From Lytechinus pictus (taxonomy: Eukaryota): DNA of 64,000 bases. Below are positions 282-23,456 of the stretch, in pieces; position 1 is the stretch's first letter; every line of letters starts with the position of its first letter. Below the pieces are notes generated by a model that did not search any database, was not told where the DNA came from, and worked only from the letters and a program-made list of their open reading frames with translations. The stretch lies in NCBI RefSeq assembly GCF_037042905.1, contig NC_087251.1, positions 558,001 to 622,000 of the forward strand, given 5' to 3'. Both the position numbers and the translations under genes were made by a program.

Positions 282-2340
282 CATAGGCGGATCCGGGGGA
301 GGGCCGAGGGGCCCGGCCGGGCCCCCCCCCCTATTGGTGGAGCCCTGTGGTGGAGCAAAAAAAAGAAAAAAGGGGGAAAGAAAGAAAAAAGAAAAAGAAG
401 AGAAAAGAGAGGAGAAAAAAGACGGGGAAACATAAGAGGAGGAAGACGAGTGAATAAAATGAGATGAGGGGAAGACTTAAAAAATTATCAAAAAAATATT
501 TCATGTCACTATATAAAATTTTCGCTCGCGCTTCGCGTTCGCATTGCCTTTTAGGTGATTTACATATCTTGCTCAATATGGAGCTTCAAATATCAAATTT
601 TGAAGTCAATATACAAAACATATTTCATCTCGGAAATCGAACTTTCATTATTTTGTTTGATTTACAAATTGATTTTTTAAAGTGCTCTGTAAAAATTTAT
701 GTTTTATGGTCTGAATATTTTATGGTCTGAACATTTTATGCTCGCGCTGCGCGCTCGCAAAACTTGATTTGTAAGATACCTATTATTTTCCTGTATTCCA
801 TAAAGTTCTCAAAATATCCCTATTCAGGTCAAATTGTCAAAGTGTATCAGCTAAAGCTGCACGCTCGCATTTTGATTGGTTAGTTATGTTTATCTAAATT
901 TTAATTCTAAACAAACTACTTAAAATCCCCATTTCATGACAGTTCATCAAAAATTTCCGCTCGCATTTATTGTTGAAAAGATATTAACTCATGCATCTTA
1001 TTCATAATTACTAAAATACTTTAAATGTTCAGTTTTCAGGCCATGATATCAGCAGATTTTGCGCTCTCATTAGGCTTATTAAATTAATGAATAAGATATC
1101 AATTCAATAATCTAATTGTCCCTTTTTCAGAATGTAATATCGACAAGTTAAATTTCGCTTAGGAAGAGAAATAGGAAGATAATGTCCTTATAGAATGTCC
1201 CGGTCCTATTTCAGAATTCAAAGTAATAATAATGAAACATATCAGCTCTTTTTTCTAACTGTGATCCATTTCCACCTCGCAACAGAGCTTAAATCGACAC
1301 TTTTTCCGATCGGAATATCAAATATTTCAAGCCCGCGCTTCGCGCTCGCTTTATTGATTTTCATGATAAAAAAGTTATTTAGAATACCCAAACTCCGATA
1401 CGCATCTTGTTCTCTATATAAATCATTATCCAGTTTCAGATCACAAATTATCAAAAAATTTATTATTAATGTAGGAAAATTTCCACTTACACATCCTTTC
1501 CATGATTTACAAAACCTGAATAGAGTGTCCCATTTTTAGGTGTAAATCTCAGATTTTTTCCGCTCGCGCTTCAAGCTCGCATCAATTATTTAGTTACTTA
1601 TCCTTTTCATGATTACAAAAAATGCTTAGAATTTCCATTCTTCAGGTAGAAATGTCAAAATTTGAAGCTCGCGCTTCGCGCTCGTATTGTTTGATAGTTG
1701 AAATATAAAACGTCTTCATGGCTAACAAACAGCCGTTAACAGATCCTTTTTTTATCAGATCAAAACGTATATTTAAAAAAAAATTCTACTCGCGCTTTGC
1801 GCTTGCATTATTAATAAAGATTTCCAATTACTCATCCTTTTCATGATTTATAGAGTGTCCCATTTTTAGGTGTAAATCTCGATTTCTCCGCTCGCGCTTT
1901 GCGCTCGCATCAATTATTTAGTTACTTATCCTTTTCATGATTACAAAAAGTGCTTAGAATTTCCATTCTTCAGGTAGAAATTTCAAAATTTTCAGCTCGC
2001 GCTTCGCGCTCGCATTGTTTAATAATTGGAATATGTAACGTCTTCATGGCTAACAAGCAGCCGTTACTAGATCCGTTTCTGATCATATCAAAACGTATAT
2101 AAAAATTTCTGCTCGCGCTTCGCGCTCACAGTAAGATTTAGTTGGATACACATCTCGTTTAGAATCACAAACATTGCCCACAATGTTTAAATTTTAGGAC
2201 AAAATACATGAAATAAAAAAGCTCGCGCTTCGCGCTCGCACTTTTTCAATAAACGAGTAAAGGGAGAAAAAAAAGGGAAAAGGAAAAAAAAGAAAAGAAA
2301 ACTGAAAAAGGGAAAGGTGAAAAGAAAACTATTAAATAAA
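282..2340 (+). mobile_element. Non-autonomous hAT-like family with repeated GCTCGCGCTTCGCGCTCGC motifs
   Basis: Starts CATAGGCGGATCC. Homologous segments lie at about 22400-24309, 37300-38100 (-) and 54900-55589 (-). The right boundary is approximate. Confidence 0.7.
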
Positions 2341-3076
2341 AACATTTTTTTTAAGGAAAACGGAAGGACAGCGGCAAAAGGAAGGAAAGGAGAACAGGTC
2401 CCGGAAGGAACAGGTGGGAAAGAACAAACCATCCCGAAATACTAATGCATTAGCATGATCATATGAAAAAAGATGACGAAAATGGCAAACAAAAGTGGAA
2501 AATGAAGGTAGAATGGAATGGTATGAGCCAAAAACTAAATTGGAAAATGAAGAAAAGAGACCGTCAAGAAAAAAAAAGAGAACTTAATAACACGATTGGG
2601 CTGCCGAGGATTGAAAATAAAGAACGGGAAGAAAGATGGACGGCATATAACATTGTGTATGGAGTCTATCATAGCTCAATTTTATGCAATAATGGTCGCA
2701 ATTGGTCGCAATCACCAGGCGCGGATCCAAGGGGGCCGAGCTGGCCCCGCCAGCCCCAGCCCCCCCCCCCCCCCCGGCCCAGCTATAGCAAGCTGACGTG
2801 AGCCAATGTCGACCAATATCGACCAATATCTGCCAATGTCCGTGGCCGAGTGGTCTAAGGCAGGGGCGTCGATCCATTTTTCAGATTGGGGGGGGGCAAA
2901 ATCATGAATCAACGTTCCAAAGGCGCTCAATCACACAACCCACCCACACAGGCCTATATATAAATAAATATGTATGTTAGCATGTATGTATATATATATA
3001 TATGTAAATGTATATATATATATATAAAATTGTGATGAGCAAGGACCTAAACATTGCGTGGGTGCTTCAGTGAGTA

Positions 3077-3398
3077 ATATATTGGCGAAGAAGCTAAAAA
3101 TACAATGAAGCTAGAGACGTAGCCTGGATTTCTTCAACTTTTATTATTGATTTTAATAGCTATTGGATAATCCTAATTAAACATTACCGATGTAAAACAT
3201 TTTCTTTTAAGATATACCTATATTTAGTAAATTAATCAAAATATATGCATGGTAATTGTAAAGCCATTATGTATTTTACATCTTCAGATACCTGAAGAAG
3301 GCCCAACTAAATGGCCGAAAGCTTGTACTAATAAAAGTTGAAGAAATCCAGGCTACGTCTCTAGCTTCAATGCTTTTTGAGCTTCTTCGCCAATATAT
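3077..3398 (+). mobile_element. Penelope-like pseudo-LTR fragment with inverted terminal copy, in a (TA)n tract
   Basis: About 70-bp inverted repeat (3077-3146 versus 3329-3398), with a hammerhead motif and AATAAA inside, flanked by TA microsatellite. Confidence 0.65.
3281..3344 (+). ncRNA. Minimal type I hammerhead ribozyme motif
   Basis: TAC-CTGAAGA-A-GGCC(9 nt)GGCC-GAAA-GC-TT-GTA, with distal stem I TCTTCA/TGAAGA and palindromic stem III (AAGCTT). Confidence 0.7.
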
Positions 3399-3413
3399 AT
3401 ATATATGTATATA

Positions 3414-5135
3414 CACTGTTGGTCATAAAGGTAGAATATTTTCTTTCACCAAATTTTCACAGCGTAATTATTACAACATGATTCGAATATGGCATTTATG
3501 GTGCATGATAACCACTTTACTTTATTATTCTGCCTTTTACACACGTTTGACAGTGATATTTTTCAAGTTTATGTCCTAAGCGATGGATGTCATGATCATA
3601 GAACAACAATGACGACAATATACAGTAAATTAAAGGATCATGAGATATTTAATTTCAATCTCTCTCAGTTTTCCAGATGACTTCTTTTTTGTGATGTCAT
3701 GGACAAATTTGCATCAAACTTGAGTCATTGTTCTTACTCAGTCACTAGTATCGGGTATGTCCACCCCTGGCACGAACCCGCACGAACCAGCGCATGCAGA
3801 CGTCGTGGCATGCTGTCCACTAGCTTGTTGATGACATCAACAGGCATAGCGTCCCATTCTTCCCTCAGAGCATCTGCCAACTCCTGCAGATTTTGGGGAA
3901 TGACCTCTCTGTCGTTGATGGCTCGGCCTAGGGCATCCCATGCATGCTCTATGGGGTTCATATCCGATGAACAAGCTGGCCATGGCTAGTGTCCCTGTAT
4001 AGAACACTAGCCATGGCAACTGTACGACGCCCTCTGCCTCCAGGAATTCCCTTACTGCAGCGGCCCTGTGTGGTCGATTAGCGTTAATTGTCATCCTGCA
4101 GTCGGAAATTGTGCCCATACACTCGTCTTGCATATGGAAGACAATGGAACTCCAAGATATATCCCTGTAGGCGGCGGCGTTGACGTTTCCGTCCGGAACG
4201 TACCACCAGTGGCGTTTTCCCTCCATATCGATGCCGGCCCATATCATCACTGAGCCGCCTCCGCCTTGAGTCATCTCGTGGATACATTCATCGCAAAGGT
4301 TTTCCCCGGCTAATCGACGAACTCGTTGTCTCCCATCCTTTCGGTCAAGGATGAACCGGCTCTCGTCCGTAAAGACCACATGTTGCCAATGTTCTGGATG
4401 AAGCCTTCTGTGCTCTCCCTAGCCCAAAGAAGACGAGCTACTCTGTGGAGAACAGACAGGCGTGGATATTTGGTCAACCGTCGTGCTCGGTAACCATGTT
4501 GGAGCAATCTGCGATTAACGGTTGACCGGGAAACGTTGATCCCATGATATCTCCTCCACAAGCGACGAAGACGGCTCGTGGGCAATTTCCGGTTTCTGCG
4601 GCTGAAATTCAACAGTTGGCGATCATCTCTTCTTGTGGTCAATCTGGGACGTCCTGGAGATTTCCGTGGCCGCACATTCCCCGCCTCACGTTGACGTTTC
4701 AGGGTCTTAGAGACTGCACTCTGTGATATATCCCTAGGACTTCTGCGATATCAGTCTGCTTGTTGCCCTCCTGTCGCAGTGCTACCACTCTCTCGCGTGT
4801 TGCTGTTGCCGTTGGACCAGGCATAGTCCAGGGAACGTCTCTACGGATTTTTATTTCAAACGCGGTACAAGGCCGGAACTCGAAAAAATGCAACCTTCTT
4901 ATATACAGTGCTAAATCAGGGAAAGGGACAGAATACCATATGCATAGGCTTTTATAGTCTACAACAAAAGAATTTATTACGTAATCCAAATTTCTCATGT
5001 TATGTCACCTGTGTAATGGGGAAACATTATGTAATCACTCAATTACCATTTTGTCTACGCGTAGCCTTTCAAATACCAACAAAACTGTCGATTTTTATTC
5101 AAAAATATTTTATTCCACCTTTATGACCAACAGTG
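3414..5135 (-). mobile_element. Full-length Tc1/mariner element with frameshifted transposase
   Basis: 25-bp TIRs CACTGTTGGTCATAAAGGT(A/G)GAATA, TA TSD. ORF pieces: SPGRPRLTTRRDDR (4310-4675), VFTDESRF...GGGSVMIWAGI (3837-4379), LQDDN, MNPIEHAWDAL (3734-3961). Confidence 0.95.
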
Positions 5136-12116: not shown

Positions 12117-13997
12117 TGTATATATATATATATACATATAGTAAAAAAAAACTTGTATCTCTATTAATATACAAAAGTATTGGCCTCATCGCAATAAAAG
12201 GGTTAATACACGAGATTTTGAAATCGCACATAACATACATAATTTTGTGTTACTTTTTGCTTGTTTCTTTCTTTAATAAGTTTTTCAATCTCTCTCTATA
12301 TATGTTTTAGAAAGATTATATGTTTAAATTGATGTATATTTTCTGTTATAATGAGATATGAAGTGGACTTCAGGGAATGGTCGTACGCAGCAAGGGGGAA
12401 GCACATTCGCGATCTGCTGTTGTGAAAAACTTTTTTTTTTCCTTAACATTTCATGAAAACTATGAAAAATGTGCAAATGTGAGATGTGCACCAAATTTTC
12501 GAGTCTTGCCCCCCCCCCCGGAAATATTATCTGCGTGTGGTCATGCAAAATGGCATGACTGGAAATCCTACATTTTGAAAAGAGCATTTGACAGGGTCAG
12601 ACTTTACCCCTTTTTCAACATTTTCTTTTATGGCGCCGGTGAAGTGCAAAAATATGTGCGCCGCTCGGTAGTGCGCCCCCCCCCCCCCCTTTCGCCAAAA
12701 GCTGGATCCGCCTATGTTACACAATTGCCTATTTCGAGCACGGGAAATTACAAACTTAGCAATTTTTTTAGAAAATGCTTATCAATCAATTACATTTTGT
12801 TGATTTAAGAGAGTATACTCCTGCGATCGGCGATTGAAATAGCAATTCAGAGCCGCGCGTTGAACATTCACATGCATTTTCTGCGCACTGACGTTTATTT
12901 GTGCTTGACGTTATGTAGATCAGAGTGGTCTATCAAGATCTAGATCTAGAGGCTAGAATAGACCTAAACTAAATTTATTTAGATCTAGGACTTTACGGAC
13001 TAGACCTATTAAACCAAGGCTGCCAAACCCATTGGTCTAACGTAAGTAGATCTAAACGTGTAAGTTAAAAATTAACCAGTTATAATTAAGTTAACCATTT
13101 ATAGTCGGCCGCAGGCATTAAACAGGTCCAGATTCATTGAAATAAAGGGGATAAAGTTAATGCCCTAGCCTAGGCTATATAGCAACAGCCTAGGTATAGC
13201 ATAACATTTTGTCTTGTCATTAATGGCAATTTGATAAGTGTTTAAGAATTGGATCTAGATATAGATCTAAGCGTATATATAAGGCTAGTCCTTTGCCAGG
13301 ACTGTTCTACTTTTCAGTTGATCAATAACACAATCCTCGACCTCTACGCCCGAAATGAAAACAGCCACACGATTTCCTACCCTCATGGTGAGGGGCGTGA
13401 AAGAGGGGATAGCGCGATCACTGGAGAATAAAGCAAGGGGAGAGAAATAACAAGTACACCGACGTCTAGAATCTAGACTAATATAAGGCCTCAGCTAGGC
13501 CTACAGGGTAACGGGTAGTTCATCCTAACATCGTTTACCACATAATATCACCCATAGCAACCATCACACCCAGATGTCACTCTGACAAAATAACAAAATA
13601 TACACTATTTTGGGATATAGCCTGCCGAGCTACTAGCACGTAGATACGGCATTTATTTCACATAAATTATCAACACTTTCATTTTTCAAAGTATGAAAAC
13701 AACTTCTAACAAATTCTGTCTGAGAATCATACATATATAATGTTTTTATACCTCTTAACATTAATCGTGTGAAGTCATAACTAATTAAACTGTTATGCCC
13801 TAACCCTAATTTTGCCCGGGTTTAAAAAAACAGAGATAAAACTGAATCAGCACTAAACTCTGAAAAAACCCTATGGCCACCGCAACTTTGATGTAACAAC
13901 GTCTCCTACCAATTATCATTTTTTAATTCACTCTATAAAAAGAACTCCATATTAAAAAACGTGCTAGTGTGCGGTTCTTGGAAAGCTAGAAAAGCTG

Positions 13998-14409
13998 GTT
14001 TTCGCCCAGCGTCGTACGACGTAGAACGTAAGGGTCGTGTGCAAAAATTGCCAACTTCCATGGAAACAGAGGCCCAAGCGATCTTGAGCTCAAATCACGG
14101 ACGGTTCTTCCGCAAATTAGCGGGCGTCCGCATTAGAACGTAGGATTTGTCAACAGCCGTCAACAGCCAATCAGATCGCTTGTAGAGCGAGCAAGCTGAG
14201 CTGAGCCGCGCCGACAGCCAGTTTATAGAGCGCGGGCGCGGGATTTTCCCTAGTAGTGGTGACGTCATGCAGTCTACATACTTCCGGTCGATCCGGCCGC
14301 GATCAGCGATTTGCGAAACTGCTTACAAGCGAGAGTTGAGCGCGACGGACGCACGAACCAAGAGATCGTTCTACGTCGTTGATAGCGTCGTACGACGCTG
14401 GGCGAAAAC
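13998..14409. mobile_element. CpG-rich MITE-like inverted-repeat element
   Basis: 24-bp perfect inverted repeat GTTTTCGCCCAGCGTCGTACGACG at 13998-14021 and 14386-14409. Confidence 0.7.
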
Positions 14410-14825
14410 ACACTAATGACTTCCCCTACAACACCACACCCTTATCTCGCATCCCCTCTTTTCATATTCAAATGAAACACCTTCGACGCAACGGAATTGA
14501 ATAATTCCGTCACGCATGCCGGAGAACAATTAGTGTTCACCACTTATTGCCGTATAAACAACATTTGCCAGCTATACGATGTAACGCTGGCAAATATGGA
14601 ACGCGGAAAGGCTAAAATTTGATCACTGTCACTTTTGATTTGATGGACCTCCGTACCAGCCATCATCAAATCAAGTGCAGCCATCAGTAAATCAAAAGTG
14701 GCCATCATCATATCAATTTTCAGCATCATATCCCTCTGTACCAGCCATCATCAAATCAGTTTCTAACATCAAATCAATGTTGTCCTTTCGGCGTTCCTGA
14801 TGTGCGCGCCAAAAGGACACCTGTA

Positions 14826-16160
14826 AGTTGATGGCAGCCACTTTTTATTTGATGACGGTTACTTTTGACTTGATGACGGCCACTTTTTATTTGATGACGG
14901 TTACTTTTGACTTGATGACGGCCACTTTTTACTTGCTTTTTATTTGATGACGGTTACTTTTGACTTCATGACGGCCACTTTTGACTTGATGGCGGCTGCT
15001 TTTGATTCGATGATGGCTGCTTTTGATTTGATGATGGCTGCTTTTGATTCGATAGTGGCCACTTTTGATTTGATGATGGCTGCTTCTGATTTGATGATGG
15101 TTGCTTTTGATTCGATAGTGGCCACTTTTGAACTGATGATGCCCACTTTAGATTTGATGATGGTCACTTTCAATTTTTTTATCGCTTTTCATTTGATGGT
15201 CACTTTTTATTTGATCACTTAATTTGATGGTCACTTTTTATTTGATGGTCACTTTTTATTTGATGGTCACTTTTCATTTGATGGTCACTTTTCATTTGAT
15301 GGTCGCTTTTAATTTGATGGGCACCTTTTATTTGATGATCACTTATTTGATGGTCACTTTTAATTTGATGGTCACTTTTAATTTGATGGTCACTTTTAAT
15401 TTGATCATCAATTCTTATTTGATGGTCACTTTTAATTTGATGGTCGCTTTTTATTTAATGGTCACTTTTTATTTGATGGTCACTTTAAATTTGATGGTCA
15501 CTTTTTATTTGATGGTCATTTTTAATTTGATGCTCAGTTTTTATTTGATGGTCACTTTTAATTTGATGGTCGCTTTTTTGTTGCTCACTTTTTATTTGAT
15601 GGTCACTTTTAATTTGATGGTCACTTTTTATTTGATCATCACTTTTTATCTGATGGTCGCTTTTTATTTGATGGTCAATTTTTACTTGATGGTCGCTTTT
15701 AATTTGATGGGCACCTTTTATTTGATGATCACTTATTTGATGGTCACTTTTTATTTGATGGTCACTTTTTATTTGATCATCACTTTTTATCTGATCATCA
15801 CTTCTTTGACAGTCACTTTTTATTTGATGGTCACTTTTTATTTGATGCTCACTTTTCATTTGATGCTCACTTTTTATTTGATGGTCGCTTTTTATTTGAT
15901 GGTCACTTTTTATTTGATGGTCACTTTTAATTTGATGGTCACTTTTTTGTTGGTCACTTTTTATTTGATGGTCACTTCTTCTTTGATGGTCACTTTTCTT
16001 TTGATCGTCGCTTTTCATTTGATCATCACAATTTAAGTTGATGGTTTCGGCATTCCATACATGGTCGCTTTATAATATTTGATGGTCGCTTTTCATTTGA
16101 TCGTCGCTTTTATTTGATCGGCACTTTTCATTTGGTCGTCGCTTTATTTGATCATCACTT
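14826..16160 (+). repeat. 21-bp then 18-bp minisatellite arrays in the left arm (core TTTGATGGTCACTTTT)
   Basis: Directly visible tandem units. They produce the spurious (MVTFYL)n and (KSDHQI)n ORFs. Confidence 0.95.
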
Positions 16161-16315
16161 TTTACAGTACGTGCGCGCGCATAAACGTGTCGCAGTGAGC
16201 ATGCACTGAGCAAATCCTCATGTACGTAAAGCTAGCGCGCTCTTTTTGCTTCCGAGAATTGAAGTGCAGGTGCATATATATGAATCTATTGATCGTGAAA
16301 AAATAAATCTGGAAA

Positions 16316-16381
16316 ATGGAGGGTATACTTAATAGTTTAGGGATGCCTCAATCAGTTATTAACAACTTTCAACGGGAAGGG
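16316..16381 (+). pseudogene. Candidate orphan first exon (MEGILNSLGMPQSVINNFQREG), SAM-domain-like start
   Basis: ATG in AAAATGG context, 22 codons, then the donor GGG|GTAAGT. The LxxLGMxxxxxxFxxE pattern resembles SAM helices 1-2. No downstream exon found. Confidence 0.5.
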
Positions 16382-18255
16382 GTAAGTTGAAGTTAGAATT
16401 TACTTAGATCTAGACCTACGCTTTAGATCTAACTTTGTTTGTCTATTTTGTTGGTGTGAAACGGTATAGGCCTTGGCCTAGGCCCTACTCCCTCACAACA
16501 TTGTCACTGGGGCGTTGCACTGGGGCCTATGCTCTAGTATAGACCGGCTAGGCTAGGGCCCTATCTATAAGTGTCACTAGGCCTAGTCACTAATAAGCCT
16601 AGACCAACCTGACTCCATTGTTGAGAACTGTGCTAGTAACGTAGTGTTAGAGCGCTACACACGAAACCCATGCAAATGCAGAAAAATACAGTTAGTGTTC
16701 AGTTCTTAAATATTTTCAGATCTCTAGACCCTAATAATATTAATTTTAGCTGATGATTGGCATTGCCCATTTTGCAAATGCAGCGCGGCGGGGGCAGAGG
16801 GAGGGGGTAACACTAACGAGTAACGTTGAGTCTTATCCATTGTAGTTATACACTCAAGCCTAGCGCCTATAACATACAGTTCAATTGTTACTGTTAACCC
16901 CCTACCCTCTACTCCTGCCCCCGTTGTGTTGAAGAAAACCTTTTTTTTTTTTTTTTTTTTTTTGCTATAGGCTATTCATATTTATATATATATATATAAA
17001 CAAGGCCATAGATATGAATAACAACAAACCGAGTCGCCCTTTTCCAAAACTCCCAACCCCCCTCCCCCCAGAAAATTTGTTGCGTCTATTATTGGGCTTA
17101 TTTTCTTTTTACCCAAAATTAAGGGGGGGGGGCTGCGTGCGCAACCTCCCAACCCCCTTGGCGACGGTCATGCAGTTGACCCACAGAAATTTAGAAAATT
17201 TATATTTTTCTTGCAAAAATGCATAAAATTTACAAAAAATTGTGCAACAAATCCTTCAAGTTCTGCTCGATTGCTTCGCTCCCTCACTTTCGAATAGGGT
17301 CTATTTTTGAAAATTGCAAGAGTTTTTAACAATGATGGGATGAGGATGTTTTAAACACTCTATCAAAAGTAGGTTCAATTTTGCACCTTTACCAATGTCA
17401 CACCTGGAACACATTTAATGATGCAAATTTGCACCTTTCAGAAAAATAGGTGCAATTAAGCTGTACCTTTTAAGGTGATTTCTTTTCTGAAAGGTGCAAA
17501 TTTGCATCATTAAATGTGTTCCAGGTGTGACATTGGTAAAGGTGCAAAATTGAACCTACTTTTGATAGAGTGTTTAAAACATCCTCATCCCATCATTGTT
17601 AAAAACTCTTGCAATTTTCAAAAATAGACCCTATTCGAAAGTGAGGGAGCGAAGCAATCGAGCAGAACTTGAAGGATTTGTTGCACAATTTTTTGTAAAT
17701 TTTATGCATTTTTGCAAGAAAAATATAAATTTTCTAAATTTCTGTGGGTCAACTGCATGACCGTCGCCAAGGGGGTTGGGAGGTTGCGCACGCAGCCCCC
17801 CCCCCCCTTAATTTTGGGTAAAAAGAAAATAAGCCCAATAATAGACGCAACAAATTTTCTGGGGGGAGGGGGGTTGGGAGTTTTGGAAAAGGGCGACTCG
17901 GTTTGTTGTTATTCATATCTATGGCCTTGTTTATATATATATATATAAATATGAATAGCCTATAGCAAAAAAAAAAAAAAAAAAAAAAAAGGTTTTCTTC
18001 AACACAACGGGGGCAGGAGTAGAGGGTAGGGGGTTAACAGTAACAATTGAACTGTATGTTATAGGCGCTAGGCTTGAGTGTATAACTACAATGGATAAGA
18101 CTCAACGTTACTCGTTAGTGTTACCCCCTCCCTCTGCCCCCGCCGCGCTGCATTTGCAAAATGGGCAATGCCAATCATCAGCTAAAATTAATATTATTAG
18201 GGTCTAGAGATCTGAAAATATTTAAGAACTGAACACTAACTGTATTTTTTCTGCA

Positions 18256-19756
18256 TATGAATTTGTTGTGTTCACTTAACGCGCACCGTGGCAAATCCCC
18301 TATTCCGGCGTCAAAAACTTGACAAAATAGACCCATTTTCGGCTCTTTTAACTCATATCTCAAAAACCGCTCGAGATTTTTCACGGGTTCAAACGGTTTT
18401 TTAATCTTAGACTTGTTCTTCATCTCATGATATCTGCCATTTTATATTCTGATTAAAAAAACAACCGTGTTTTTTTGACTGAAAATACACAGTTTCTCGT
18501 GTTTTTGTGTGAGAGAAGCACTTTTTGCACTGTTTTGGGCTCGATCTTCTCTTACAGCGTCTGACTTTCGTATCAAAATGTCTCAGTTCAACGACTATCA
18601 GATAGACAGGTTGTAACTCTTTCTTGTGATATAAGGTTCAACCTAATTGGTTGAAAAAAACCGCCGTGTTTTTTAGGTCAAACTTTACAATCCAATGAAC
18701 TTTTTTTGTATTTATCACGCATAATCTACGTTAATTGATTAGTCGCACTGCGCACGATTGTCTATTTTAGTATGCCTATCAACTCTTTATACTCTTTCCT
18801 CTCCTATCAAAAATTGAAAGGGGGTACAATATCCTCGTCCTAGATATAAGAAGAAGAGAACATTTCCTTTTCATTACATGTAAAATCATGCCCATTCTTG
18901 AAAAAAAAAATTCGTCACTTCTAGGTTAAACTTTACAATGCAATTAACTTTTTTGTTCTTATCATGCACAATATCCATTAATTGGTCGCACTGTGCTCGA
19001 TTGGATTTTGGTATACGATGTTCAACCTGGCAGCAGCGCGTTTTGCGTTAGATTTGGAAATCCTCGTTCCCAGACAGGGATATGTAACATGTAAGCTTTT
19101 CATACATATAAAATTCATATTGATTGATTAATATTTAGCTCCGTCAATTTTCACGTTAAATCATGCTTGTCTCATTTTAAGAAGCCAAATCCAGGGATGA
19201 ATAATGTGTGCATACACGTACCGCGCGTACCGGTGCATATACGTATACGTGCAGCGCATGAACGGTGTATACACCACACAATACGCCGAATACCTTTCTA
19301 TATCGATGCAATAATCACGTACACACACAATGCGCGCAGTAGTAAACAACGCGTCGCTAAGACAACTGAACCTGAACTCGGGAGTACATCGAGGGAAGGA
19401 GTACAGAATCAGAGAAAATTATTCTCACTTTTTGGTCAGAAGAAAACATTTCCTTATATGTCTATATCTTAACATAAACAGAAGCTGCTCCGTTATCCTT
19501 ATGTCGTACCACAGTCAATATCATAAACAAATTACAGTGATTCTATTTTGTCACAATATATAAACTTGATTAGGGCAATTTATGCACCCCCAAGAAGTAG
19601 TGTTTACGGCCCGGCCTATCTCTACCACACAGACCACACAGACTTCGCACAGTTCGGTCAAGGCGGTACGCGTATCATTAACTGCCAAATACAGCCGACC
19701 CAAGCTGAATAAAACCTTCATATTAGGTGAACAAAATAGGGGGTAACAAATTCATA
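18256..19756. mobile_element. 1.5-kb non-autonomous TIR element inserted only in the right arm of the palindrome
   Basis: TIR TATGAATTTGTT/AACAAATTCATA with TGCA duplicated on both sides. The left arm shows the empty site (about 16677-16680). The boundary is ambiguous because TGCA is palindromic. Confidence 0.85.
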
Positions 19757-19885
19757 TGCATTTGCATGGGTTTCGTGTGTAGCCTCTGGCTCTAACACTA
19801 AGTTACTAGCACAGTTCTCAACAATGGAGTCAGGTTGGTCTAGGCTTATTAGTGACTAGGCCTAGTGACACTTATAGATAGGGCC

Positions 19886-20417
19886 CCCGGGGGGGGCACT
19901 CGACCAAAAAAGTGGTAGGGGTGTGCCGCGGGCGAGACAAAAAACGGGGGCCTTGGAGCGGGCTTATTGTAAAAAGGAGGGTCCTCGGAACGGGCTTCGG
20001 AACTACAATTTTGTGAAAACGGGGGTCCTTGGAACGGATCAACAGCGTGCGAGTACGTGCGTATGTACCCCTATGGAACGGGCATGCGTGCATGATGCAG
20101 CTATACGCGGCCTCCGCTGGGTGCGCTAGCGCAGAGACGATGGTCGGACAGCGCTCGGCGGCCGCTTTTCACCAAAATTGCAGCAGATCAATGCGACCGG
20201 AACGGCGTAACGAAAAATATGCGAAGCTTTGGAGCGGATTTCTTTTTTTTTTCTCTCGATAAGAACAAAGTGCTATGCCTTGGAGCGGCTTTCTTTGTTT
20301 TTTTGTCTCGATAAGACAAAAATGCTATGCCTCGGAACGAAAATTTGAGTGTGAAAATGGGGGTCCCCTCCGCGGCACATACCCACTATGCATTATATAC
20401 TGAGTGCCCCCCCCGGG
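19886..20417. mobile_element. CCCGGG-ended MITE with 8-bp TSD, right arm only
   Basis: CCCGGGGGGGGCACTC...GAGTGCCCCCCCCGGG; TSD ATAGGGCC; empty site in the left arm near 16560. Confidence 0.9.
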
Positions 20418-20603
20418 ATAGGGCCCTAGCCTAGCCGGTCTATACTAGAGCATAGGCCCCAGTGCAACGCCCCAGTGACAATGTTGTGAGGGAGTAGGGC
20501 CTAGGCCAAGGCCTATAGTACCGTTTCACACCAACAAAATAGACAAACAAAGTTAGATCTAAAGCGTAGGTCTAGATCTAAGTAAATTCTAACTTCAACT
20601 TAC

Positions 20604-20669
20604 CCCTTCCCGTTGAAAGTTGTTAATAACTGATTGAGGCATCCCTAAACTATTAAGTATACCCTCCAT
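20604..20669 (-). pseudogene. Mirror copy of the candidate SAM-like first exon
   Basis: Reverse complement of 16316-16381 with the same GTAAGT donor. Confidence 0.5.
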
Positions 20670-20821
20670 TTTCCAGATTTATTTTTTCACGATCAATAGA
20701 TTCATATATATGCACCTGCACTTCAATTCTCGGAAGCAAAAAGAGCGCGCTAGCTATACGTACATGAGGATTTGCTCAGTGCATGCTCACTGCGACACGT
20801 TTATGCGCACGTACTGTAAAA

Positions 20822-22050
20822 AGTGATGATCAAATGAAAAGCGACGACCAAATGAAAAGTGCCGATCAAATAAAAGCGACGATCAAATGAAAAGCGACCA
20901 TCAAATATAAAGCGACCATGTATGGAATGCCGAAACCATCAACTTAAATTGTGATGATCAAATGAAAAGCGACGATCAAAAGAAAAGTGACCATCAAAGA
21001 AGAAGTGACCATCAAATAAAAAGTGACCAACAAAAAAGTGACCATCAAATTAAAAGTGACCATCAAATAAAAAGTGACCATCAAATAAAAAGCGACCATC
21101 AAATAAAAAGTGAGCATCAAATGAAAAGTGAGCATCAAATAAAAAGTGACCATCAAATAAAAAGTGACTGTCAAAGAAGTGATGATCAGATAAAAAGTGA
21201 TGATCAAATAAAAAGTGACCATCAAATAAAAAGTGACCATCAAATAAGTGATCATCAAATAAAAGGTGCCCATCAAATTAAAAGCGACCATCAAGTAAAA
21301 ATTGACCATCAAATAAAAAGCGACCATCAAATTAAAAGTGACCATCAAATAAAAACTGAGCATCAAATTAAAAATGACCATCAAATAAAAAGTGACCATC
21401 AAATTTAAAGTGACCATCAAATAAAAAGTGACCATTAAATAAAAAGCGACCATCAAATTAAAAGTGACCATCAAATAAGAATTGATGATCAAATTAAAAG
21501 TGACCATCAAATTAAAAGTGACCATCAAATAAGTGATCATCAAATAAAAGGTGCCCATCAAATTAAAAGCGACCATCAAATGAAAAGTGACCATCAAATG
21601 AAAAGTGACCATCAAATAAAAAGTGACCATCAAATAAAAAGTGACCATCAAATTAAGTGATCAAATAAAAAGTGACCATCAAATGAAAAGCGATAAAAAA
21701 ATTGAAAGTGACCATCATCAAATCTAAAGTGGCCATCATCAGTTCAAAAGTGGCCACTATCGAATCAAAAGCAACCATCATCAAATCAGAAGCAGCCATC
21801 ATCAAATCAAAAGTGGCCACTATCGAATCAAAAGCAGCCATCATCAAATCAAAAGCAGCCATCATCGAATCAAAAGCAGCCGCCATCAAGTCAAAAGTGG
21901 CCGTCATGAAGTCAAAAGTAACCGTCATCAAATAAAAAGCAAGTAAAAAGTGGCCGTCATCAAGTCAAAAGTAACCGTCATCAAATAAAAAGTGGCCGTC
22001 ATCAAGTCAAAAGTAACCGTCATCAAATAAAAAGTGGCTGCCATCAACTT
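20822..22050 (-). repeat. Mirror copy of the 18/21-bp minisatellite in the right arm, ~105 bp shorter
   Basis: Reverse complement of 14826-16160. The ORF track shows 235 aa versus 270 aa for the mirrored repeat ORFs. Confidence 0.95.
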
Positions 22051-23456
22051 ACAGGTGTCCTTTTGGCGCGCACATCAGGAACGCCGAAAGGACAACATTG
22101 ATTTGATGTTAGAAACTGATTTGATGATGGCTGGTACAGAGGGATATGATGCTGAAAATTGATATGATGATGGCCACTTTTGATTTACTGATGGCTGCAC
22201 TTGATTTGATGATGGCTGGTACGGAGGTCCATCAAATCAAAAGTGACAGTGATCAAATTTTAGCCTTTCCGCGTTCCATAGGCAAATACATTTTTAGGGT
22301 GCTGATTCATTTATGTCGTCATGCAACGCGCATGCGTAGTCTTATTCCAAAGACGAAATCATGAATATTCATATTGATGTAATAAATAATTTTGCCCCCG
22401 CCCCCCCCCCCCCCCCCCCATTGGCGAAGCAAAAAAACCCGGAAAAAATCAATAGAGGGGGAAAGAGAGGAGAAAAAAAGAAGAGGAGGAAGACGAGTGA
22501 ATAAAATAAGATGAGGGGACGACTTTGAAAATCAAAAGAATCTTTCATGTCACTATATAAAATTTTCGCTCGCGCTCGCATTATCATGTTCGTCAATATA
22601 CAAAACATATTTCACCTCGGAAATCGAACTTTCATTATTTTGTATGATTTACAAATTAATTTTTAAAAAGTGCTCTGTAAAAATATCAGTTTCATGGTTT
22701 AAATATTAACATTTTCTGCTCGCGCTGCGCGCTCGTAAAATTTTGATTTTTCAGGTACCCATTATTTTCGTGTATTCCATATTTTCAAAATATCCCTTTT
22801 CAGGTCTGATTGTCAAAACGTATCAGCTAGCGCTGCACGCTCGCATTTTGATTGGCGAGTTATTTAAGTCCCAATATTGATTATACAACAAACTACTTAA
22901 AATCCCCTTTTCATGACAGTTTATCAAACATTTTGGCTCGCGATTTGCGCTCGAATTAATGGTTAAAAATATATTAACTGATGCATTCTATTTATAATTA
23001 CAGAAGTGCTTGAAATGTCCAGTTTTCAGGCAATAATATCATCAGATTTCGCACCCTCATTAGGCATTAATGATTAAGATATCAATACATTGTTCCTTTT
23101 GTTTCATCTCGCGCTTAGCAAGAGGAAGATAGTCATCATTTTCATATGTATGTCCTAAAGATGTCCGGTCCTATATTAAAACTCATTGTTATAATAATGT
23201 GCGATCCATATCCACCTCACAATTTTCCTACAAAGTGCTTGAAATATAGAGCTGAAATTGACTCTTTTTTTCAGATCGGAATATCAAATAGTTTAGGCTC
23301 GCGCTCGCTTTGATTTTCATGATAAAAGATGTATTTAAAATGTCCAGATTCTAGGTCTAAATAAAACACGCGCGCATGTTTATTCAGATACTCAACTTGT
23401 TCTCTATTATCCAGTTTCAGATCACAATATAAAAAAAATTCTGCTCGCATTATTAA

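Follow-up and report, generated by a model that had tools for sequence, protein, structure and literature searches.

The window analysed here, the whole stretch of 64,000 nt of Lytechinus pictus DNA (assembly GCF_037042905.1, contig NC_087251.1, positions 558,001 to 622,000, forward strand), holds a 7.7-kb palindrome at 14595-22280 which, with a probability of about 0.78, represents a non-autonomous fold-back DNA transposon from a very young family of 30 copies, centre-deleted and most likely moved by an enzyme of the IS3EU/GingerRoot type. An inverted-repeat search and readings of the junctions showed that the structure proposed in a first-pass annotation of this stretch, a palindrome with TATGG...CCATA ends, a 37-bp spacer (17446-17482) and a GGCAAA target-site duplication, is real. 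The element opens with TATGGAACGCGGAAAGGC... and closes with ...GCCTTTCCGCGTTCCATA, and GGCAAA lies directly outside both ends. As in fold-back elements in general the terminal inverted repeats make up most of its length, and each arm consists of an outer part with tandem arrays (21-bp and 18-bp periods) followed by 1.29 kb of unique sequence. Such a structure is not producible by chance and the same 6-bp duplication rule is found in 29 of the 30 family members.

The arms had been described as ~2.85 kb long, which is correct for the left arm (2,851 bp, 14595-17445) but not for the right one (4,798 bp, 17483-22280). Two other transposons nested in the right arm account for its additional 2 kb and also explain why the earlier figures did not add up (2 x 2.85 kb and 37 bp give 5.7 kb, not 7.7 kb); the homologous sequence around the 37-bp centre amounts to 2,851 bp in the left arm and about 2,750 bp in the right one. 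The near identity of the arms, apart from homopolymers and repeat counts, was confirmed by alignments leaving out the insertions, in which the inner blocks show 0 to 1 substitutions each and few homopolymer-length differences (16676-17445 against 18256-17483, 0 mismatches and 3 gaps in 774 columns; 16556-16680 against 19886-19757, 1 mismatch and 1 gap; 16160-16565 against 20821-20417, 1 mismatch and 2 gaps). The outer domains, 1,589 bp and 1,479 bp, are separated by 115 edits, mainly through the right arm being six 18-bp units shorter, while the outermost 547 bp of both ends are identical.

A search of the 812-Mb assembly recovered 11 loci, spread over 7 contigs, at which the inner arms are exactly 37 bp apart, every one of them having a 6-bp duplication of its own, in agreement with the earlier proposal that the palindrome had transposed as one unit. 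Since these 11 copies share the 37-bp centre at different sites, the palindrome moved whole and is not an assembly artefact. The notion that a chimeric long read or a mis-join made an inverted duplicate absent from the animal is scarcely credible, given that the same centre recurs at all these loci within two-ended elements, that the arms in the window differ in repeat number and that one of them bears two insertions with duplications of their own; an artefact would furthermore not restore the flank sequence past the second end, where the flank repeat resumes exactly. Mobility of a whole palindrome was also seen for another form, as three copies share a 7.8-kb centre with a reverse-transcriptase fragment at 99.4-99.7% identity and have the duplications GTTTTC, GATATG and CAAAAC; a fold-back carrying part of a retro-element, either captured or nested, has itself been mobilised at least twice. 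The carriers of this passenger are located at G000:C14:3084490-3098041, C17:10643251-10661138 and C18:14051476-14069248.

The left flank (14425-14594) is part of a repeat with about 15 copies, and 10 out of 10 paralogs examined read ...GCTGGCAAA TACAT..., with one GGCAAA and no element, while the window has the same sequence split. Judged by this comparison the paralogs represent a paralogous empty site, and a site without the element would read GCTGGCAAATACATTTTTAGGG. Genome searches with the flanks gave copies of the repeat family only and no second copy of the site lacking the element, and Logan contigs of public runs included none over the inner arms and none across either junction or the centre. 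Contigs departing from the window at 14596 with 'CAT' were considered as a candidate empty allele but rejected as they match the flank-repeat paralogs. The flank repeat itself spans 13518-14594 and 22287-22291 (TACAT), shows 95-100% identity among its copies and closes with ...GGCAAATACAT, the fold-back sitting 5 bp from its 3' end. In 3 of the 10 paralogs it is directly followed by its own start (GTTCATCC...), indicating tandem copies, and it holds a nested repeat of its own at about 14150-14421 (188 first-look candidates).

A search with the 23-nt terminus revealed 59 exact matches and one with 1 mismatch, all pairing into 30 elements of 4.4 to 41 kb, and within 3 mismatches only one further, unrelated match appeared. 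For the 236-bp unique end all 40 scored matches were 100% identical and, among 15 copies compared in full, the outermost 277 bp are identical in all 30 arms. Reading both junctions of every copy showed a perfect 6-bp duplication in 29 out of 30, with different flanks each time and no longer exact duplication in any. All right ends and 29 of the left ends follow the TA...TA rule, the exceptional left end starting with GA. The duplications have the form S-W-W-W-W-S (position 1 G/C in 23/30 and position 6 G/C in 23/30; positions 2-5 A/T in 25, 21, 20 and 25 of 30) and a GC content of 42%.

Behind the uniform ends the middles are heterogeneous. Palindromic inner arms are found in 23 of the 30 copies, around centres from 37 bp to about 10 kb, and in the remaining seven ('type 2') the same outer domain is followed by a 5.4-kb middle of unrelated sequence. 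Because this type 2 middle, a 5.3-kb module, occurs outside the 30 elements too (92-99% identity, at least 16 loci), the family is modular. Examples of the module, which other repeat families thus have in common with this one, are L020:1760-7040 (G000:C4:27048335-27053615) and, outside the family, G000:C17:14981883-14987163 (99% identical). A comparison covering 10 copies (20 arms, each about 1,330 bp) gave only 20 substitution sites, 18 of them singletons, and this low divergence between arms indicates that the family is very young. A 139-bp mini-element at C19:3215237-3215375 (within L074, G000:C19:3215126-3215375) has the family's 17-nt inverted termini (TATGGAACGCGGAAAGG), together with a duplicated extra left end 111 bp upstream, and shows no clean duplication. 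This mini-element and a single end at C9:23306587 share 17/18 nt with the family terminus and neither is informative.

The origin suggested for the palindrome in the first-pass annotation, a fresh inverted duplication of one transposon end, was not upheld when the longer relatives were analysed. In three copies with a centre of 1.4 to 1.5 kb each arm reads ...AATTTGCACCTTTCAGAAAA, 37 nt, TTTTCTGAAAGGTGCAAATT and then continues for about 460 bp. As these copies have the stem-37 nt-stem arrangement in each arm, the 37-bp spacer represents the loop in a small hairpin occurring once per arm, and the copy in the window is a centre-deleted derivative of longer palindromic relatives. Folded as single-stranded DNA, the centre hairpin gives -33.5 kcal/mol (z -11.5). 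Since the arms are inverted the stems become direct repeats, 20 bp long and situated 1,424 bp apart in the 1.4-kb-centre form, and the exact centre of the window copy would follow either from deletion between these repeats or from snap-back synthesis at the hairpin. The largest copy, 13,449 bp at C17:30955862-30969310, is a 98.8% palindrome over its middle 7.4 kb, with a 304-bp centre, which together with arm matches and termini gives arms of about 6.6 kb. The 1.4-kb form is itself a deletion of this largest copy, and the copies show a nested centre-deletion series, from several kb over 1.4 kb to 37 bp, with every stage still mobile; after losing its centre the short palindrome kept transposing as a unit.

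To compare arms within and between copies the outer domains were aligned for eight copies. Between copies a median of 286 edits was found, while within a copy the number was 0 (C3:5.09M), 1 (C14:1.11M) or 115-630 (the other six). Outer-domain lengths, derived from match and terminus coordinates, do not differ between the two arms in 3 of the 20 copies that could be measured (C7:25.98M, 1990/1990; C3:5.09M, 1780/1780; C14:1.11M, 1813/1813), all with a single 37-nt loop, and the two shared substitution sites (2/2) are each found in the left as well as the right arm of a given copy, one in C7:25.98M only and the other in C7:25.98M and C3:67.17M. That an inverted duplication of a single end, at or just before this insertion, gave rise de novo to the palindrome, the second arm being a copy of the first, draws on these 1.8-kb outer domains with 0 and 1 edits in two of the eight copies, on the equal lengths, on the shared substitutions and on the 20-bp-stem hairpin placed exactly at the centre. 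For the window copy it is nevertheless improbable, as its arms, 115 edits and six repeat units apart in their outer domains, are not fresh copies, the identical centre is present at ten other loci, longer relatives hold the 37 bp within each arm, and six of the eight compared copies have arms as unlike as those of unrelated copies. Of the duplication idea, what seems to hold is arm-to-arm copying elsewhere in the family. Few copies underlie these figures, and differences in homopolymer length may reflect assembly error, but the figures hint that in a minority of copies one arm was recently copied from the other, while in most the arms look to have separate histories and to be inherited together.

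As a tentative and rather unlikely extension, we put forward that the palindrome can rebuild from one arm: the centre hairpin would allow one arm to snap back on itself and serve as primer for the missing arm, for instance in a replicative, IS3-like copy-out or during repair. If so, half an element would suffice to regenerate a mobile fold-back and mutations would reach both arms at once. This would provide a specific mechanism for the origin and symmetry of fold-backs and would tie TU-type fold-backs to an IS3EU/GingerRoot transposase.

All 30 copies are gene-less and the family is non-coding. In the window copy it is the tandem arrays that contain the longest open frames, and none of 15 frames had a Pfam match above cut-off; the type 2 5.4-kb middle has no frame over 85 aa, and in the arm of the giant palindrome, the longest in the family, only low-complexity frames without Pfam match were found. 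A BLAST of the arm had been proposed as a way to an autonomous parent, and none was recovered: searches with the inner arm, the 236-bp end, the 23-nt terminus (up to 3 mismatches) and a 12-nt terminus returned the 30 gene-less copies and matches at chance level (for the first 12 nt of the terminus, 11 additional scattered exact matches against 14 for a reversed-pattern control). Because no autonomous parent was found, the superfamily is assigned by hallmarks only.

These hallmarks are the TA...TA termini and the 6-bp duplications. In passages of PMC10045372 (Kojima 2023), TA..TA termini are described as invariable and 6-bp duplications as usual in complete IS3EU families; IS3EU is placed together with GingerRoot in a single lineage without an HHCC domain, and the IS3EU core is integrase-like, the name being derived from its similarity to IS3. 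GingerRoot, according to passages of PMC6839031 (Cerbin et al. 2019), has a 6-bp duplication as well, and 72 of 77 of its elements end in TA...TA. The ends had initially been called IS3EU-like on the motif 'TAYGG'; the likeness stands for TA..TA and the duplication length, but the motif is absent from these passages of PMC10045372 and PMC6839031, which give TA..TA. The structure and function of IS3EU elements have been called 'largely unexplored' (PMC11934779).

Support by analogy was found in another family of the same genome. At C7:1963246 a terminus reading TATGGCACGCTAGAAGGG (start TATGGCACGC) is identical to that of the fold-back family at 13 of 18 positions and is followed by 15-bp subterminal tandem repeats, and 8.5 kb inward lies a 272-aa frame with a Pfam rva_4 integrase core (E 1.1e-70) and no H2C2 zinc domain. 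Across the genome rva_4 is matched 89 times, in at least 8 cases without interruption and with E below 1e-59, and none of the 89 is near a terminus of the fold-back family. Intact rva_4 genes lie at C8:18473867, C13:6342779, C19:4540528, C12:25431373, C11:31942349, C4:23280437 and C8:1877966, and another group comprises about 13 copies with 308-aa frames. A search with the degenerate terminus TATGGNACGCNNNAANGG gave 23 matches against 50 in a reversed control, i.e. not above chance, and recurring identical 18-mers show related families with TATGG[A/C/G]ACGC starts, e.g. TATGGCACGCCAGAAGGG seven times. About 45 degenerate, stop-ridden rva_4 fragments on one strand over 35 kb (G000:C4:22364448-22399466) look like a tandemly amplified, decayed transposase array.

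Another superfamily or enzyme, such as Ginger2/TDD, a Polinton-derived integrase or an undescribed transposase, is unlikely to have moved the element, albeit less so than the de novo duplication discussed above. No transposase is linked to the exact termini, and 6-bp duplications are reported for Ginger2/TDD and Maverick/Polinton as well, but passages of the same source give their ends as TG...CA and AG...TC respectively, not TA...TA (PMC6839031). The TATGG-ACGC shared by the family and the C7:1963246 terminus with its rva_4 core, and the further families with such starts, likewise argue against it. The hallmarks thus fit IS3EU/GingerRoot and no other described group, and membership is what we infer, since no transposase has been linked to the family's own ends.

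Several points weigh against the reading of a centre-deleted, IS3EU/GingerRoot-mobilised fold-back. The transposase link is made by hallmark and by analogy with another family, no autonomous element with the family's termini is present in the assembly, and the C7:1963246 element is known from its left end alone, the rva_4 gene thus not being placed inside its boundaries. With the bacterial IS3 model NF033516 (47 of 915 candidates scored) no IS3EU gene was obtained, only H2C2-domain retro-type integrases; among five frames derived from this search and scanned, four were such integrases and one was a reverse transcriptase. The terminal inverted repeats, 2.8 kb or more, exceed by far the 100-150 bp given for GingerRoot in passages of PMC6839031. 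Many of the arm differences are homopolymer lengths and could be assembly error, and deletion and snap-back yield the same product and are indistinguishable here. Finally, C2:41.61M (G000:C2:41609308-41617036) has no duplication and a G instead of T as its first base; it is the sole such member and may be a rearranged or immobilised copy.

For a fold-back of the IS3EU/GingerRoot type the following course is proposed. A transposase supplied in trans, most likely a DDE enzyme with an rva_4 integrase core, would bind the identical 236-bp/array ends, probably at the arrays, cut at the TA...TA termini and integrate the palindrome as a whole through a staggered cut of 6 bp at S-W-W-W-W-S sites. After the fold-back had landed at the present site, two unrelated transposons entered its right arm, as the nested insertions show.

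When compared with known systems, the architecture is that of a classic fold-back of the TU, FB or Tetris kind and the hallmarks are those of a non-autonomous IS3EU/GingerRoot family. The TU elements of Strongylocentrotus purpuratus, reportedly described by Liebermann and co-workers in 1983 and Hoffman-Liebermann and co-workers in 1985, are said to have long inverted repeats with a tandem-repeat outer and a non-repetitive inner domain, to form a heterogeneous 'modular' family with differing middle segments and to make 8-bp duplications. Set against TU by description only, the present family has the same layout and, likewise, two unrelated inner modules behind identical outer domains, one of which also occurs outside the family, but its duplications are 6 bp. 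Among the Drosophila fold-backs, Galileo belongs to the P superfamily and makes 7-bp duplications, and FB makes 9-bp ones. Bacterial IS3 elements transpose by copy-out, paste-in; the integrase-like IS3EU core is a point in common, and a replicative copy-out step would account for the rise to 30 copies, but the NF033516 model recovered no IS3-like gene here, retro-type integrases only. In FB, Galileo and Tetris (D. virilis), according to passages of PMC4079207, long inverted repeats consist of a flanking domain and tandem-repeat domains and the copies are mostly non-coding. The L. pictus family shares these features but differs in superfamily and duplication length and has no sequence similarity to them.

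With GingerRoot/IS3EU the family shares TA...TA termini, 6-bp duplications and, as described in passages of PMC10045372 and PMC6839031, the occurrence of non-autonomous families beside autonomous ones; the TATGGCACGC terminus 8.5 kb from an integrase-type DDE core lacking HHCC adds a likeness by way of another family. It differs in that nearly the whole element is palindromic, with inverted repeats of 2.8 to 6.6 kb against 100-150 bp, and in that the duplications of GingerRoot are GC-rich (61%, in passages of PMC6839031) and those found here AT-rich inside. Among the matches listed by a non-exhaustive literature search, no paper paired IS3EU with fold-back elements.

The two insertions nested in the right arm are outside the fold-back family (Table 1). 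The 1,501-bp element is non-coding with TA..TA ends and a 4-bp (TGCA) or 5-bp duplication, and is a repeat family of its own as contigs from public runs match it at 90-99% identity. The second is a miniature inverted-repeat transposable element (MITE) of 530 bp with G/C-run ends; its contig depth in three runs, about 700-4,600, is very high and it is probably a high-copy family. Target duplications of 10 bp are typical of Mutator-like elements.

Table 1. Features of the fold-back locus, with positions in the window
Feature	Positions	Strand	Evidence or remark
Left target-site duplication GGCAAA	14589..14594	.	Junction read; paralogs of the flank repeat have a single GGCAAA, then TACAT
Left terminus TATGGAACGCGG... 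and unique 236-bp end domain	14595..14830	+	End-domain and 23-nt terminus searches
Left subterminal array, 21-bp period, about 16 units	14828..15170	+	
Left subterminal array, 18-bp period, 56.9 units (TGATGGTCACTTTTTATT)	15158..16164	+	
Left inner arm, non-repetitive, non-coding	16165..17425	+	
Centre: 20-bp stem, 37-nt loop (17446-17482), 20-bp stem	17426..17502	+	Hairpin module, once per arm in longer relatives
Right inner arm, first part; mirror of 16676-17425	17503..18255	-	
Nested insertion 1, outside the fold-back family: 1,501 bp, TATGAATTTGTT...AACAAATTCATA ends	18256..19756	.	Duplication TGCA (or TGCAT); left arm is the empty site
Right inner arm, second part; mirror of 16556-16680	19757..19886	-	
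Nested insertion 2, outside the fold-back family: 530-bp MITE, CCGGGGGGGGCACTC...GAGTGCCCCCCCCGG ends	19887..20416	.	10-bp duplication GATAGGGCCC; left arm is the empty site
Right inner arm, third part; mirror of 16160-16565	20417..20816	-	
Right 18-bp array, 50.9 units	20817..21717	-	
Right 21-bp array	21705..22047	-	
Right unique end domain and terminus ...CCGCGTTCCATA	22045..22280	-	
Right target-site duplication GGCAAA	22281..22286	.	Junction read

To our knowledge, fold-back transposons of sea urchins have been known since 1983 while the enzyme that moves them has remained unclear. The present family offers a clean and very young example, with 30 copies, identical ends and near-perfect duplications, and joins the fold-back architecture to hallmarks of the IS3EU type. 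Its interest is moderate, lying in the nested deletion series, the target motif and the hints of arm regeneration in a family that is well documented and not unprecedented in kind. The nested centre-deletion series shows how long palindromes shrink while staying mobile, and the hints that arms are copied from one another open a way to test how such a palindrome may arise and how its symmetry may be kept up.

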